From an uncultured Candidatus Bathyarchaeia archaeon (GTDB lineage Archaea > Thermoproteota > Bathyarchaeia > Bathyarchaeales > Bathyarchaeaceae), in assembly GCA_964399485.1 (NCBI GenBank), contig CAYNQS010000001.1, positions 64,797 to 128,796 on the forward strand: 64,000 nt of DNA, read 5' to 3'. The position numbers and the translations under genes were made by a program. This document shows positions 3,220-40,108 of the stretch, one piece after another. The first letter of the stretch is position 1. Each line of letters opens with the position of its first letter. The notes beneath the pieces are model-generated. The model was not told where the DNA came from and ran no database searches. It saw nothing but the letters and a program-made list of their open reading frames with translations.

Positions 3220-3999
3220 ATGAAGAAAGATTTGTTTGCTGCTTTTTCATTGCTCATGCTTTGCAGTCTACTGTTGATTACAACTGTTGGAACCGTCATG
3301 GCGGGCAACCAAGACTACTCAATCATAGAGTATTGGACTCAGGTAGCACCCACTTTTGATGGAGAATGGACTTCGCCAGATGAATGGACCGACGGTCAAC
3401 ATGTACAAATATCAGACGCTGGTATGTTCACATATACAGCGGACATAATGCTAACAGGTTCAATGAACTCCCAGTTCCTTGTCGAATTTTTCAGTGACAC
3501 CACCGACGATCCTGAAGACTACTGGCAAATTTGCCTTGACCCATCAGAAGGCGGTGGCTCTGCTCCTGGGACCGGTTATGGCAGAATAGACATTATCGGA
3601 CACACCGAGATAAAATGTTATGAAGGAGACGGAACAGGCTGGACCGAAATTTCGGTAGAATCAGACATAGAATGGGCAGACTCAATCACTGATACTCCGC
3701 TCAATAGCACTGCCCACTGGATTCTAGAATTACAATTTAACAAGGAATCAGGCGCCATGACACTCGCTCAGCCGCCAAATGGATTGAGAATTGCATTTTA
3801 TGATGCAAGCAATCCCGATGCGGGAGTTCAGGCGTGGCCACCAGGCAGTGACGTAGACGTTCCAGATACGTGGGGAGTAATCCCAACTTATTCAATGGAC
3901 CCGATACCAGAGAGCATTGGCTTCGGAGTTGCTGCGTTGCTATCGTCTATTGCGGTTGCTGTTAGCTTCTACTTTTTGCGGAAGCGACCAAAAACCTAA
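3220..3999 (+). CDS. Secreted CBM9/DOMON-like protein with C-terminal PEx-hydrophobic-basic anchor (paralog of 16036..16842)
   Basis: Signal peptide, PTFDGEWTSPDEWTD motif, and a C-terminus IPES + hydrophobic helix + RKRPKT resembling PEF/PGF-CTERM sorting signals. Confidence 0.75.
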   Translation: MKKDLFAAFSLLMLCSLLLITTVGTVMAGNQDYSIIEYWTQVAPTFDGEWTSPDEWTDGQHVQISDAGMFTYTADIMLTGSMNSQFLVEFFSDTTDDPEDYWQICLDPSEGGGSAPGTGYGRIDIIGHTEIKCYEGDGTGWTEISVESDIEWADSITDTPLNSTAHWILELQFNKESGAMTLAQPPNGLRIAFYDASNPDAGVQAWPPGSDVDVPDTWGVIPTYSMDPIPESIGFGVAALLSSIAVAVSFYFLRKRPKT

Positions 4000-7680: not shown

Positions 7681-8004
7681 GCTTGATTCCCAGCTAAACC
7701 GTTGGCACACTAATCATAAAACCTTTCTCTCTTTCCAATTGTTGCGGGTAAGTGGAAAAAGACTGCGACGAAGCGGTTAATCCAAGAAACAGTCCGAGAC
7801 CTAATCATCCGAATTTGTAGTGTTTTCTGATTTTCTTTTTTATTTCCTTGCTAACCTGTAATAGCAATCCACACTTCTTTAGTCTATAACTGGTGGCTCT
7901 TTAGCAACAAAAAGAAAGAGCGTCAGTCTCCTTCGTCGCCTTCCTTCCCTAAAGAAAAAACAGAAAACAAAACCAATTCACAAACACACAGAGCTACCGC
8001 ATGC

Positions 8005-32319: not shown

Positions 32320-32505
32320 GTGAGCGAGGATGTAAACATCGTTATGCCCAAGTGCATGTCATGTAACCGAACTATTCCACCGGGTGAAGACGCAACAAAG
32401 ACCAGTTGCCCAAACTGCGGAGAAATAGTTATCTGGCGCTGCTCTAAATGCCGTCAGTTCGGAAGAAACTACCGCTGCCCAAAATGCGGGTTTACTGGAC
32501 CGTAG
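32320..32505 (+). CDS. Small double zinc-ribbon protein (COG2888/DUF1610-like)
   Basis: Four C-x2-C pairs ending CPKCGFTGP. GTG start 5 nt after GAGGTG. Confidence 0.7.
   Translation: MSEDVNIVMPKCMSCNRTIPPGEDATKTSCPNCGEIVIWRCSKCRQFGRNYRCPKCGFTGP
32482..32504 (+). repeat. Direct repeat, left copy (3' end of the zinc-ribbon gene)
   Basis: AAATGCGGGTTTACTGGACCGTA, identical at 21/23 positions to 34630..34652. Confidence 0.8.
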
Positions 32506-32898
32506 GGGATATTTACCTGACCTTTTTATTTATCTTTAAATGTGCATGATTTTAGCACAAAAAAGGGTCTTGGTCGATATTAGAGATATTAACCACCTGG
32601 TTGTCTTTTTTGGTTTCAGAGCAATTTCATGAATACATATTATAATGTACTATACATAAACCGTACACGCAGAGAAACTCATTCAGCCATCAATAAGCTC
32701 AGGAGGCTCTCAGTCCTATTACTTCTGCTTAAACAGCTGAGGCATCTAAGTCTCTATGTTGCCCTTTCTCTTTCTTAATCAGACCCAATTTCACTCAGCT
32801 TATTCTTCAAGTTTCATTTATGAACGCGTTAATAACTGTCCTAAAAAATAAGGGAGGGAGGGTTGTGACCGTAGTTTTTGGTGGGATGTTTTGGAGCT

Positions 32899-34248
32899 CT
32901 AGACCGCGATCTCCACAGCCTCGTGATCCCTCTGCCAATGGCCTATATGGAAGTAGTTGTTTATGATGGTTCTGTCCCAAGCTCTAAGAACTACCAGGTA
33001 GCAGCACGGTTGGAGTTCTTCTCCTTCCGCCCAAGGGTTCCAAATCACTTTCCTCCAAGGCGGTTCACCGGTGTCAGCTACGTTTCCTTCGTAGGATCTG
33101 TCGACCTCCAAGCCCGTAATCTCGTCTTTAATTTTTTTAGTGATACCGCATCCGCCTTCTGCTACAAGGGTGAGCTTTCCGAAGTTGGGGTCCTCTGCTC
33201 TGAACCTTATAACGATCTTGCCTTCACCCTTTTTGATGCCGCTGCATTTTATCTCCTTCTCCGTTCCGTCATCCATTAGTATTTTGAGGTTTTGGAGTTG
33301 GACAAGCGGTGCTTCATTATCCACTCTTACTGCGACGATTTCACTCATGAACTCGGCTCCAAGAGTGTTCCTAACTGTCAGCCTAAGATAATATTTCCCT
33401 GTCCCACTGGGGGTCGGCCAGTCTGTCAGATAGTTCATGTTTACCATTTCCGCCACATTATACCAGCCCGGGTCTGGAGCGAGAGACGGTTTTCTGATAA
33501 TGTAACTGATTCCATTCCATTCTATAAGTGTGGTCGTGATCGGGGTCCATGAGGCTAGGTCCGAGGAATATTCAACCTTGTACTTGTCAGGTTTGGTTAT
33601 CCAGAGAATTCCCCGTATCTCTGCCCACCCACCGAAAGGGTGGTCGCCACGCCCTTCCGAGACATCGGGTGCAGCGGTCGTCCCTGGAGGCTGGCTAGGA
33701 CCGTTTGCATAACCTTCGGCGTCGATCTTACCAGTGGGGATGTTGCCCACATGTGTGATATGAGGCATGTCTGGGCAGAGGAGCCAGCATATCCTACGGC
33801 AATAGAAGTAGGCGAACCAGCCACAGAACTGCCTACAGTAAGGCATCATCTTCCATTCCGCGAGTATGGATCGGAACTTTTCGGCGTCCTGTCGCTTGTA
33901 AGCATCGAAGAGAGCCACAAAAGCCTCCTTGTTGGCGGTCAGTCTCACCGTTGCCTTCCCAAAATTGAGCATTTCCTTAACTGTCGGTTTAATCGGCTCT
34001 TTCTCTGGTGGACAAAGCGGTGTGCAGGCAAATCTCCATATCTTTACGCAGAACCAGCGGCAAATCCACCGACAGTATTTGAAGATGTCAAGTCTCGATA
34101 GCACCGCCTGAAATCTTTCCGCATCACGCTTCTCAACTGCCTCGGCAGCTTCCCTAAAAAGCTCTGGATTCTTAACAAGTTCTTCTAAAGCCTCCCGAAA
34201 CTCTGTCAACTTCTCAATCTCTACTTCATCTTCACTCAAGTCTTTCAC
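32899..34248 (-). CDS. Orphan 449-aa protein: two mirrored Cys-rich helical modules plus a beta-rich C-terminal region
   Basis: Long ORF. The likely start is the TTG at 34239, 5 nt after GGAGGTGA. Modules are YCRWICRWFCVKIWRFACTPLCPP and YCRQFCGWFAYFYCRRICWLLCPD. No family recognised. Confidence 0.7.
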   Translation of the reverse strand: MKDLSEDEVEIEKLTEFREALEELVKNPELFREAAEAVEKRDAERFQAVLSRLDIFKYCRWICRWFCVKIWRFACTPLCPPEKEPIKPTVKEMLNFGKATVRLTANKEAFVALFDAYKRQDAEKFRSILAEWKMMPYCRQFCGWFAYFYCRRICWLLCPDMPHITHVGNIPTGKIDAEGYANGPSQPPGTTAAPDVSEGRGDHPFGGWAEIRGILWITKPDKYKVEYSSDLASWTPITTTLIEWNGISYIIRKPSLAPDPGWYNVAEMVNMNYLTDWPTPSGTGKYYLRLTVRNTLGAEFMSEIVAVRVDNEAPLVQLQNLKILMDDGTEKEIKCSGIKKGEGKIVIRFRAEDPNFGKLTLVAEGGCGITKKIKDEITGLEVDRSYEGNVADTGEPPWRKVIWNPWAEGEELQPCCYLVVLRAWDRTIINNYFHIGHWQRDHEAVEIAV

Positions 34249-34629
34249 CTCCTCTTGATTTTATTTCATTATGAAAGAATACTCCCGTCAAAATCATGAT
34301 GTTTAGGTGTATCCCTTCACATTATAATTATTTGTTGAACTGAACTTAAAACTTTGGGGTCAATCAAAAATTATAACAAAAACTGTGGGGCTGTGCTGCT
34401 TTCAAATTTTATTAGTTCTTAATACAAACTGTGATAGGCAATGTAATTACCTTTCAATTTGGAAGGAACACAGAAAAGATACTGACAAAGAAAGGTTAAA
34501 ATTTAATCCTTAGAAAGCGAGGGTACAGAGCACAAAGTCAATAATATTTAAAGATAATTTGTATACCCATTCTAAAATAAGCAAAATTTTAAATTTGGTC
34601 TTCCGGGGGCTGTCTCCATGATGATTTGC

Positions 34630-34652
34630 AAATGCGGGTTCACTGGACCCTA
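34630..34652 (+). repeat. Direct repeat, right copy (orphan duplicate of the zinc-ribbon gene 3' end)
   Basis: AAATGCGGGTTCACTGGACCCTA. In frame it still reads KCGFTGP-stop. Confidence 0.8.
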
Positions 34653-34867: not shown

Positions 34868-34990
34868 GTGGGGATTCAGGAAGTTAATGAGAAGTACCGT
34901 TGCAATATTTGCGGTAACGAAGTTGTTGTAACCAAGGTCGGCGGCGGAACACTTGTATATTGCGGACAGAATATGGAGTTAATCAGCTAG
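34868..34990 (+). CDS. Desulforedoxin-like small protein (40 aa, below the ORF-track cutoff)
   Basis: GTG start after GAGGGGGGTGA. Translation is VGIQEVNEKYRCNICGNEVVVTKVGGGTLVYCGQNMELIS, resembling the Dx/Dfx N-terminal domain but with YC instead of CC. Confidence 0.5.
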   Translation: MGIQEVNEKYRCNICGNEVVVTKVGGGTLVYCGQNMELIS

Positions 34991-38425: not shown

Positions 38426-40108
38426 ATGAATATTTCAACGTTTTGTCGTAGAATGAGAGAAGAAGTTGCTGAACACTCAGTTGGAAGAGAAGATACTGCC
38501 GCTTTTCTAATATGGTATTTAGAAAACTATTTTAGACTTGAAACTGTTGATGCAATAAGTTCTGTTTGTGACAGTAGAAACGATAGAGGTATTGATGCAA
38601 TTTTTGTAGATGATGATGATCAAACCATATATATTTTTCAATCAAAGTTTAGCCCATCAAATAGGCAACGTCAAGGGGATAGAGATCTGAGAGATTTTAT
38701 GGGGACCCTACAATGGTTCAATAATGAAGCAGCGGTAAGGACATTGAAAAATGGAACAACAAGCCAAGAATTGAAATCTATTATCGAGAATCAAAAGATC
38801 ATAGAGAAAATAGATTATGAAAAGAGATTGGTTTTTGTAACTAATAAAAGATTTAATGACCATGCAAACGAATATCTTGCTACCACAGAGAATTTTGAAG
38901 CATATGATTTACAAAATCTTTTTGACAAATATACTTACTTTGCAGAGGAAGAAATTGATTTACCTGAGGTCGAATTAATCATTTCAAATTTGACCAACAT
39001 TGCATATAATTTGACTGGCGGGTTAAGGGCAAGAGTGTATGCAATTAGAGCCAAAGAACTTCTCAAGTTACATGGGATTCAAGATCGAACTCTCTTCTAC
39101 AAAAATGTGCGGTATAGCGTAGGAAAAACAAGGGTAAACAAAGATATTAAGAAAACTATTGATCAAAGAAACGAACATCAGAATTTCTTCTTGTATCATA
39201 ATGGCATCTCAATTATATGTAGAGAATTAACTGAGGATCACCAGAATCACAGAATAAGACTAAGGGGATATGCTATAGTTAATGGATGCCAATCCATGCT
39301 AACTTTCTATGAAAATCGGAATGAATTAAGTAACAACTTGTATGTCTTGGTCAAGATAATAACCATCAATCCAACATCCCCCTTGATCAAAAAAATTACG
39401 CATAATGCCAATAATCAAAACTCTATAAGCATTCGGGACCTCAGATCCAACGACTCAGTTCAAACTTGTTTGCAAAGAGAATTTCAAGAAATATTTGGTG
39501 ACAGGGTTTTTTACAATAGAAAACGGGGAGAGCTCTCTCCAAACGCTGATATTGTAATCGACAAAGATTTGGCTGCACAACTTATTACAGCAGTATATTT
39601 GAAGGAACCACACATGACTCATTTGAAGCAAAAACTGTTTGGAGAATATTACTCCAAAATCTTCTCAAGAAACATGACAGCGGAAAAAATATTCTTAGCC
39701 AAAAAAATCTATGATATTGTGGAAGAAAATTCTGATTTATTAGATAACGAACGCATTAGAAATTATGGTCTATCGCTCTTTTTCTTTTCACATGTCCTTG
39801 CAGAGATCCTGAACATGGATGAAACTGGTGCTGAAATACTAAATAATCCAAGACAATATATTGTAGATCAAATTGATCCTCTAACAAACAGTATAAGGCA
39901 AATCTGGAGATTAATAACGCCAGATATAAATGTCGATATAGAGGAATACACCGAACAAAATGATAATTATTTTGATTACAAAAACGTTTTCAAAAATGCT
40001 AACTTTGTAAGAACGATGGGACGCCAAATTACTGCAGATTATCAAAGAGTAATACGAAGAAATAATGATGACTCCTTCTCAAGAATATTTGAAACATTTT
40101 CTACATAG
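38426..40108 (+). CDS. AIPR (abortive infection phage resistance) family protein
   Basis: N-terminal nuclease-like GIDAIFVDDDDQTIYIFQSKF and central FLYHNGISIIC...VNGCQS motifs typical of AIPR. The gene and flanks are visibly AT-rich. Confidence 0.75.
   Translation: MNISTFCRRMREEVAEHSVGREDTAAFLIWYLENYFRLETVDAISSVCDSRNDRGIDAIFVDDDDQTIYIFQSKFSPSNRQRQGDRDLRDFMGTLQWFNNEAAVRTLKNGTTSQELKSIIENQKIIEKIDYEKRLVFVTNKRFNDHANEYLATTENFEAYDLQNLFDKYTYFAEEEIDLPEVELIISNLTNIAYNLTGGLRARVYAIRAKELLKLHGIQDRTLFYKNVRYSVGKTRVNKDIKKTIDQRNEHQNFFLYHNGISIICRELTEDHQNHRIRLRGYAIVNGCQSMLTFYENRNELSNNLYVLVKIITINPTSPLIKKITHNANNQNSISIRDLRSNDSVQTCLQREFQEIFGDRVFYNRKRGELSPNADIVIDKDLAAQLITAVYLKEPHMTHLKQKLFGEYYSKIFSRNMTAEKIFLAKKIYDIVEENSDLLDNERIRNYGLSLFFFSHVLAEILNMDETGAEILNNPRQYIVDQIDPLTNSIRQIWRLITPDINVDIEEYTEQNDNYFDYKNVFKNANFVRTMGRQITADYQRVIRRNNDDSFSRIFETFST

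Follow-up and report, generated by a model that had tools for sequence, protein, structure and literature searches.

The window analysed here is a 64,000-nucleotide stretch of DNA from an uncultured Candidatus Bathyarchaeia archaeon (contig CAYNQS010000001.1, positions 64,797 to 128,796 of the forward strand). On its minus strand, at 32899..34248, it harbors a gene for a protein of 449 amino acids (aa) whose N-terminal domain (N-domain) carries two clusters of cysteines (Cys) on helices; in related proteins these clusters are regular ladders. As judged from covariation among the relatives, the two ladder helices are coupled antiparallel, in register and rung by rung within each domain, and each rung, made of one Cys from either helix, behaves as one evolutionary unit.

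Coupled loss of cysteines between two ladders

The first cluster of the window protein consists of Cys 59, 63, 67, 75 and 79 followed by PP (spacing C-x3-C-x3-C-x7-C-x3-C), the second of Cys 138, 142, 150, 154 and 158 followed by PD (spacing C-x3-C-x7-C-x3-C-x3-C). Tyr precedes and Pro follows each cluster, and these ten residues belong to a total of 14 Cys in the 449-aa protein. The original prediction, made from the DNA letters alone, had described the open reading frame (ORF), both five-Cys patterns and the N-terminal duplication correctly. It had also called the spacing mirrored, which proves not to be a design feature of the protein. In the family alignment, each module bears a regular six-Cys ladder, (C-x3)5-C. 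Both ladders are complete (CCCCCC + CCCCCC) in 70 of 106 sequences, and all six rungs are present in 127 of the 245 complete domain copies (out of 260 family proteins) that formed our covariation set. The ancestral state, as read from the aligned relatives, is two regular ladders of this kind. In the window protein, rung 4 is replaced by Trp71/Ala146 and five rungs remain; the spacing appears mirrored because this rung was lost from a pseudo-two-fold-symmetric ladder.

The losses follow one rule, position i of ladder 1 going with position 7-i of ladder 2. Thus, in the 106-sequence alignment, loss at position 4 of ladder 1 accompanies loss at position 3 of ladder 2, and the same holds for position 6 of ladder 1 and position 1 of ladder 2. 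The correlation of Cys absence between ladder-1 and ladder-2 positions amounts to 0.84 for the pair (1,6), 0.75 for (2,5), 0.97 for (3,4), 0.89 for (4,3), 0.40 for (5,2) and 0.91 for (6,1), and it is at most 0.2 for all other position pairs. When double losses are scored as concordant and single losses as discordant for each candidate pairing, the antiparallel in-register arrangement gives 123 concordant and 23 discordant cases. The parallel register gives 10 and 249, respectively, and antiparallel shifted registers give at most 9 and at least 206. In 42 proteins that possess two such domains, pairing within a domain is supported by 45 concordant and 11 discordant cases, pairing across the tandem domains by 9 and 83. 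Within-ladder, parallel, shifted and cross-domain pairings were rejected on the basis of these counts. The staple inside each C-x3-C module, as originally envisaged, is thereby replaced by pairing between the modules.

Paired losses are scattered over a neighbour-joining tree, with at least 4-5 independent events for rung 4 and at least 6 for rung 6; the tree holds at least 10 independent paired losses versus one half-broken rung. The residues that replace a lost pair are often complementary, namely W/A, L/V and F/S at rung 4, R/Y, A/W and W/G at rung 3, and A/A, V/A and A/W at rung 6, which is the pattern expected of positions in direct contact. Rung-by-rung co-loss permits an unusually clean inference of contacts from presence/absence covariation. 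The pairing of i with 7-i is the outcome expected of a pseudo-two-fold axis and, together with the duplication described below, it suggests that the ancestor was a homodimer of a single module.

Architecture of the N-terminal domain

Two tandem copies of a four-helix module, each with a Cys ladder on its final helix, make up the N-domain of about 160 aa. When aa 16-80 are aligned locally with aa 96-160, the score is 117, while 300 shuffles score 26 +/- 5 with a maximum of 64; the internal duplication is therefore real. Module 1 (34009..34233, minus strand, aa 6-80) comprises acidic helices 6-25, 28-39 and 43-52, the last including DAERF (residues 42-46), and then ladder helix 1 (56-75). Its duplicate, module 2 (33769..33981, minus strand, aa 90-160), comprises helices 90-105, 107-118 and 122-131, with DAEKF at residues 121-125, and then ladder helix 2 (135-157). 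Ladder 1 (34012..34074, minus strand, aa 59-79) reads C59, C63, C67, W71, C75, C79 and ladder 2 (33775..33837, minus strand, aa 138-158) reads C138, C142, A146, C150, C154, C158, the ancestral Cys being lost at W71 and A146.

These eight helices are taken from a full-length AlphaFold2 model built on the 106-sequence alignment (predicted local distance difference test, pLDDT, 94.5; predicted TM-score, pTM, 0.88; N-domain alone pLDDT 91.6). The ladder helices were modelled with pLDDT 86-97, so the original placement of the Cys on helices holds in the model, and so does the beta-rich region that was expected behind the Cys modules (residues 163-449, following the eight helices). Cys ladders occupy only helices 4 and 8, and about 58 residues forming three helices lie between them. 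Both ladder helices are rich in Trp, Phe and Tyr and cationic, with charges of +5 and +3 in the window protein. The charge pattern extends over the family, in which ladder helices have a mean charge of +2 and the other six helices are acidic.

Neither a signal peptide nor a transmembrane helix was found in the window protein, as had been stated before: the N-terminus is acidic, an upstream extension of the ORF is impossible, and the maximum of a 19-residue Kyte-Doolittle window is 0.89. A transmembrane or membrane-hairpin reading was rejected on the latter value and on the presence of R, K and H in the ladders. The Foldseek comparison of a predicted structure that the original prediction recommended revealed no solved structure resembling the N-domain. 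The best match in the PDB has E = 0.14 and a TM-score of about 0.2, the matches being de novo designed bundles, and profiles of the full-length protein and of the N-domain found no match among PDB sequences.

Chemical nature of the rungs

We lean, if only slightly, towards the view that the rungs are inter-helix disulfides and that the N-domain is an extended twin-CX3C zipper. The predicted disulfides of the window protein would be C59-C158, C63-C154, C67-C150, C75-C142 and C79-C138, rung 71-146 being lost. Disulfides are what CX3C pairs on antiparallel helices are known to form in the small Tim proteins and plant alpha-hairpinins compared below. The domain would then represent a twin-CX3C helical hairpin lengthened from 2-3 rungs to 5-6. 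Its core, a cationic, aromatic-rich and covalently zipped hairpin, would be enclosed by six acidic helices, an arrangement that fits the opposite charges of the ladders and the remaining helices. Such a unit should be very rigid and resistant to reduction. It might serve as a stabilising or assembly handle that is completed only under oxidising conditions, once the protein has left the cytoplasm or when oxidative stress sets in. Presumed disulfides would also account for the rarity of single Cys losses, because an unpaired Cys beside several cystines invites scrambling. Since the zipper domain is always N-terminal, ahead of beta-sandwich regions that vary by subfamily, we infer that the window protein is a non-enzymatic binding or structural protein. 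The placement before variable, "extracellular-looking" C-terminal regions could also mean that the domain is a trafficking or assembly module.

Several points weigh against disulfides. No recognisable export signal is present in any family member, which makes the proteins cytoplasmic by default. Stable disulfides are unusual in the cytoplasm, and the host belongs to an anaerobic archaeal lineage, the Bathyarchaeia. By our own geometric reasoning, six i/i+4 rungs on an ideal alpha-helix drift by 40 degrees each, 200 degrees in total, so that an unusual right-handed supercoil or underwound helices would be needed. The beta-rich part of most members has an odd number of Cys and therefore at least one free thiol, and no conserved gene neighbour constrains the function in 53 loci. 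Finally, pairwise co-loss would be equally expected if each rung formed one two-coordinate thiolate metal site.

The last point introduces a different picture, in which the Cys are reduced and cytoplasmic and each rung binds a thiophilic ion, e.g. Cu(I), in two-coordinate fashion. In-helix CXXXC pairs might join in, so that the domain would be a two-helix analogue of the Cys-lined bacterial copper storage proteins Csp1/Csp3, used for sequestration or storage. The leaderless family and the anaerobic host suit this picture, and rung-wise modularity fits one site per rung. There is also a precedent in Csp3, a cytosolic protein with helix-borne Cys and two-thiolate Cu(I) sites (PMC5171941). On the other hand, most Csp Cys bridge two ions, so that a site of this kind gives no particular reason to expect strictly pairwise co-loss (123:23). 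The N-domain bears Cys on just two of eight helices and has neither a sequence nor a fold match to Csp/DUF326. The family consensus contains His beside several ladder Cys (SKHC, CHQLCHWLC), but these His are not conserved and are missing from the window protein. An odd trio of conserved Cys together with conserved His in the beta-rich part speaks for metal. One locus carries MbnP and MauG-like genes 2.4 kb upstream of the family gene, yet metal-homeostasis genes are not recurrent in 50 neighbourhoods. We consider a metal ladder the main alternative, but a rather unlikely one.

The original prediction had offered a disulfide-stapled hairpin or a metal or Fe-S site, and the first two indeed form the right pair of hypotheses; the Fe-S part of the proposal did not fare well. 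In an Fe-S or Zn(Cys)4 domain, each cluster would engage four Cys, that is, two rungs. The high density of Cys in a leaderless protein of an anaerobe speaks for it, as does a weak, sub-threshold MiaB-like match (E 0.07). However, Cys are lost in twos and not in fours: rung 3 alone is missing in 24 cases, rung 4 alone in 31 and rung 6 alone in 26, whereas the adjacent rungs 3 and 4 are missing together in 3. Cluster motifs of the CxxC or CxxCxxC type are not present and scans of family libraries returned no Fe-S family, so that we regard a cluster domain as very improbable.

Covariation is blind to the distinction between pairing within one chain and pairing between two. The rule of i with 7-i might thus operate between protomers and produce covalently cross-linked dimers or polymers, e.g. 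a capsule, sheath or matrix material. The pseudo-two-fold rule with its suggestion of a homodimeric ancestor is compatible with this idea, and minicollagen cysteine-rich domains (CRDs; CX3CX3CX3CX3CC) do polymerise via disulfide reshuffling (PMC4863159). Against it, AlphaFold2 folds the monomeric N-domain alone with high confidence, and the strict within-domain pairing in two-domain proteins (45/11 versus 9/83) favours a closed intradomain hairpin. An intermolecular zipper is improbable in our opinion.

Returning to the intramolecular zipper and the metal ladder, a bolder proposition covers both. The double-ladder domain would be a new fold and, with six rungs and twelve Cys, would form an intramolecular helical disulfide zipper of a length unmatched in nature, in proteins without a leader, or else a two-helix linear array of thiolate metal sites; a zipper in leaderless proteins would moreover require an unrecognised route to an oxidising compartment or oxidation in the cytoplasm. 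An unrecognised oxidation route, cytoplasmic oxidation or a two-helix metal array would each be without precedent, and we put the proposition forward only tentatively, as a doubtful one.

A widespread family without a name

By similarity to other predicted proteins, the Cys-ladder gene is a member of a large, unnamed and widespread prokaryotic family; it is not an orphan, as was initially supposed. A search of 5.8 billion proteins yielded 112 homologs, nearly all of them full length (about 440-500 aa), with E-values down to 1e-280 and none with a Pfam domain or a name. When the N-domain profile was scored against 1.84 billion cluster representatives (50% identity), it matched 279 clusters at E<=1e-3 and 98 at E<=1e-30.

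The view that the family is uncharacterised proved right. No model of Pfam, NCBIfam, PHROGs or PADLOC matches the query, 26 homologs or 7 long variants; with Pfam thresholds of E<=10 for the query and E<=1 for the 26 members, the libraries gave only sub-threshold noise (ScsC_N at 17 bits, Ddi2_HDD, DUF7076). Likewise, our literature searches on Cys or disulfide ladders and zippers, C-x3-C repeats, and prokaryotic twin-CX3C proteins disclosed no account of the family.

With the aid of the family-specific pattern GxGDHPFGG, 50 family loci were located in GTDB reference genomes of both Archaea and Bacteria. Archaeal carriers include Ca. Methylarchaceae, at 75% identity, and other Nitrososphaeria. 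The bacterial ones belong to Acidobacteriota (Terriglobia, Acidobacteriaceae including isolate KBS 146, Pyrinomonadaceae), Bacteroidota, Actinomycetota, Chloroflexota, Eremiobacterota and Gammaproteobacteria; among them are Chitinophagaceae, Mucilaginibacter (complete genome), Ilumatobacteraceae and Rhodanobacter.

Many proteins matched by the N-domain profile are 650-830 aa long and contain two tandem double-ladder domains (four ladders), followed by other Cys-rich beta regions. P0113, P0116, P0121 and P0143 represent subfamilies of this type, which possess 24 ladder Cys. A motif GTAxGxxFDHYTLEWR recurs in the very Cys-rich beta regions of the tandem-domain subfamilies, and C-termini are different again in P0170, P0228 and P0174. 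P0019 (630 aa) has an extra double-ladder domain in which rung 3 is lost as Ala/Trp. In almost all members the domain begins within about 30 residues of the N-terminus; the few longer N-terminal extensions have no signal peptide or transmembrane segment.

C-terminal region

The most conserved stretch of the family (33628..33768, minus strand, aa 161-207) consists largely of loop and has the near-invariant GDHPFGG (aa 201-207, 33628-33648) at its end. It is followed by two Ig/FN3-like beta-sandwiches on the minus strand. The first (33316..33627, about aa 208-311) ends in a conserved VDNxxP. The second (32902..33315, about aa 312-449) contains the near-universal Cys335 (33244-33246) and vicinal Cys415-Cys416 (33001-33006), and also Cys367. 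A second C-terminal pair, formed by Cys367 and a Cys inserted before position 335, is complete in 52 sequences and missing in 41, and in 9 sequences only Cys367 is present.

Foldseek comparison of the full model with the PDB gave 44 matches at E<=1e-3, all of them tandem Ig, FN3 or BIg domains, so that the C-terminal part finds generic relatives only. Its 240 residues align to SiiE, RbmA, NCAM and Ig-like decorations of phages (E about 1e-6, probability 1.0). The likeness is limited to the level of fold, with TM-scores of 0.2-0.4, 8-14% identity and no Pfam membership, and the motifs GDHPFGG, WDPW, CCY and WDR are specific to the family. We infer that the C-terminal part is a binding module. 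Cys335, 415 and 416, with D202/H203 of GDHPFGG, D425/R426 and H437, may constitute a metal or active site.

Coding status and start codon

The ORF at 32899..34248 is complete and encodes 449 aa when read from its GTG start. The true start is probably a TTG at codon 4 (34239-34237, minus strand), giving a 446-aa product, since a Shine-Dalgarno sequence GGAGGTG (34252-34246, minus strand) lies 6 nucleotides (nt) upstream of it and the ortholog at archaeal locus L001 (86.6% identity) is called from the same codon. The Shine-Dalgarno sequence overlaps the annotated GTG at 34248. The ratio of nonsynonymous to synonymous substitution rates (dN/dS) is 0.36 against the L001 ortholog and 0.25 against another archaeal ortholog, at L003. 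The gene is therefore real and under purifying selection.

Genomic context and integration hotspot

The window is part of a Bathyarchaeia chromosome, its TruD being 78-79% identical to that of Ca. Bathyarchaeum. Housekeeping genes flank the Cys-ladder gene, namely those for AspRS, TruD, PTH2, geranylgeranyl reductase, an HVO_2753-type zinc-finger protein, UbiA and QueT. TruD has hundreds of close metagenomic homologs while the Cys-ladder protein has about a dozen close relatives, and the gene is therefore accessory.

Three observations show that the Cys-ladder gene is a self-contained accessory cargo and that it occupies a hotspot of integration at the 3' end of the zinc-finger gene. Firstly, 23-nt att-like direct repeats bracket it, in agreement with its original assignment to an inserted element. 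The proximal repeat (32482..32504, plus strand) forms the last seven codons and stop (KCGFTGP*) of the zinc-finger gene (32320-32505). The distal one (34630..34652, plus strand) is 21/23 identical, also encodes KCGFTGP*, and both differences fall on synonymous third positions. The sequence marking the hotspot in Bathyarchaeia is AAATGCGGNTTYACTGGACCNTA; a comparable direct repeat occurred in 0 of 30 shuffles. No cargo other than the Cys-ladder gene is present in the 2.1 kb inserted between the repeats (32505..34629), and no integrase was found there or nearby. Secondly, relatives carry other cargo in the same slot. At locus L059, where collinearity with the window extends to either side (82.7% and 90% identity), both repeats recur (at 3475-3497 and 7968-7990), and the 4.5 kb of cargo between them encode an AsnC-type helix-turn-helix regulator and an 857-aa PQQ-like/filamin protein. 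In locus L061, a phage-integrase fragment abuts the repeat of the zinc-finger gene (7965-7987) and is followed by catalase, DUF6602 and Cas1. Thirdly, the L001 ortholog (81% identical) resides among entirely different genes. Its homology to the window spans 32813-34463 only, i.e. the gene with 215 nt upstream and 86 nt downstream, so the conserved upstream region 34249..34463 (minus strand) travels with the gene. Comparable repeats were not found around the L001 ortholog.

Location in such an insert had left a viral or mobile origin open, e.g. as a structural or host-interaction protein, and the Ig-like domains do resemble phage decoration and tail proteins at the level of fold. Nevertheless, the protein matches no PHROG, tblastn against 50,697 phage and 72,556 plasmid records gave no match, and no relative is present in IMG/VR. 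Matches in BFVD are generic Ig folds with TM-scores below 0.3. Viral genes were found neither in the insert nor in 50 bacterial and archaeal neighbourhoods. We consider this origin the most improbable of the explanations discussed here.

All-against-all clustering of ORFs across 53 loci revealed no conserved partner gene; only response regulators, in 17 loci, and histidine kinases, in 8 loci, are recurrent neighbours, both of generic types. Contexts of P0004, P0066, P0022, P0077 and P0113, annotated with Pfam, have nothing in common. A two-component system, often divergent, adjoins the family gene in about eight bacterial loci (L004, L005, L046, L020, L035, L016, L042, L014). In Terriglobia it pairs a response regulator of the sigma54 type with a GAF histidine kinase, in Ilumatobacteraceae a LuxR-type regulator with a HisKA_3 kinase. 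Such adjacency hints at signal-dependent expression. On two contigs, a BTAD/SARP-type regulator is encoded ahead of P0113, and an overlapping ORF of 82 aa comes after it. Genes for caspase-like C14/CHAT and TPR proteins are near the family gene in two other loci, and MbnP/MauG-like genes in one.

Other features of the window deserve mention. Just inside the direct repeats there is an imperfect 24-nt inverted repeat (32530-32553 / 34534-34557, 79% complementary). The inserted element could end there, or the similarity could have arisen by chance in DNA rich in A and T. A 342-bp segment that is missing from L059 (34673-35014) lies just beyond the distal repeat and contains a 40-aa desulforedoxin-type ORF (34868-34990, plus strand; Pfam Desulfoferrod_N 57 bits versus a 23-bit cutoff). 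The ORF has GGGGGTGA upstream, its canonical vicinal CC reads YC, and its length is below that of the listed ORFs (at least 50 aa). The patch of lowest GC content in the window (0.35 versus about 0.44) contains a gene at 38426-40108 (plus strand) whose product has an AIPR abortive-infection domain and, at its N-terminus, an Mrr-like nuclease; this defence gene was probably acquired separately.

Implications

If the rungs are disulfides, then nature has produced a helical zipper of six rungs in the N-domain, which exceeds the CX3C hairpins described so far two- to threefold in length. It would be useful as a design scaffold and for modelling how helices are stabilised covalently to an extreme degree. 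It would also raise the question of how leaderless proteins in anaerobic archaea and soil bacteria gain 5-12 or more disulfides. Rungs that bind metal would instead mean that thiolates can store metal in an architecture new to science. In both cases the domain defines an unannotated family that numbers at least 279 clusters at 50% identity, and its presence in cultured Acidobacteriaceae and Mucilaginibacter strains makes it testable. The 23-nt att site at the end of the zinc-finger gene, with its interchangeable cargo, documents an integration hotspot in Bathyarchaeia.

Comparison with known systems

A close parallel to the presumed zipper is found in small Tim proteins of the mitochondrial intermembrane space (Tim8/9/10/13), which share with the N-domain the i/i+4 spacing of Cys and the pairing of i with n+1-i. 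In their twin-CX3C motif, two antiparallel helices are joined by two parallel disulfides that resist 10 mM dithiothreitol, the inner and outer disulfides being very stable and of low redox potential (PMC2064014). Our covariation shows the same antiparallel pairing, with five to six rungs rather than two. Small Tims are 10-kDa eukaryotic hexameric chaperones oxidised by Mia40/Erv1, whereas the present family is prokaryotic and its zipper is a domain of 450-830-aa proteins. Their helices are connected by a short loop, those of the N-domain by the three-helix insert of about 58 residues. Neither the query nor the 26 other members matched the Pfam profile of the small Tims (zf-Tim10_DDP), and no fold match to them was obtained.

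Plant alpha-hairpinins (e.g. PDB 2NB2) are similar in having CX3C-stapled helices that are cationic and rich in aromatic residues. They occur with 4C and 6C motifs, and the 6C motif, C-X3-C-X3-C...C-X3-C-X3-C, makes three rungs (PMC11591084). They are, however, short secreted peptides cut from precursors and known from plants only, with a loop of 4-20 residues and at most three rungs. The ladders of our family are separated by three helices, comprise 10-12 Cys and belong to a domain of a large protein, and no homology to alpha-hairpinins was detected.

Csp1 and Csp3 (DUF326) resemble the N-domain in being helical, with CXXXC motifs on helices and Cys contributed by adjacent helices. Csp3 is cytosolic and lacks a signal peptide; most of its Cu(I) sites are formed by two thiolates, eight of them from CXXXC on one helix and the remainder from adjacent helices (PMC5171941). 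In a Csp protomer, one bundle of four helices holds 13-19 Cys, which are spread over all helices and face the core, and disulfides are absent, whereas the N-domain follows a strict rung pattern on two of its eight helices. No Pfam match, no match of the N-domain profile to PDB sequences and no Foldseek match connected it with Csp/DUF326.

The CRD of cnidarian minicollagens is the only other natural motif with at least four consecutive C-x3 repeats that our literature search disclosed. It is a 20-residue non-helical knot whose disulfides form within the motif and reshuffle between molecules (PMC4863159), as opposed to the pairing between two separate ladders seen here. Similarity to tandem Ig/FN3 modules (BIg of SiiE, RbmA, FN3 of NCAM) is confined to the C-terminal part and to the level of fold.

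Taken together, the N-domain appears to work on the principle of an extended twin-CX3C hairpin without being a member of the small Tims, alpha-hairpinins, Csps or minicollagens. If our assumptions are true, then it represents a known stapling principle realised in a new fold and in a new, unannotated family that spans Archaea and Bacteria.

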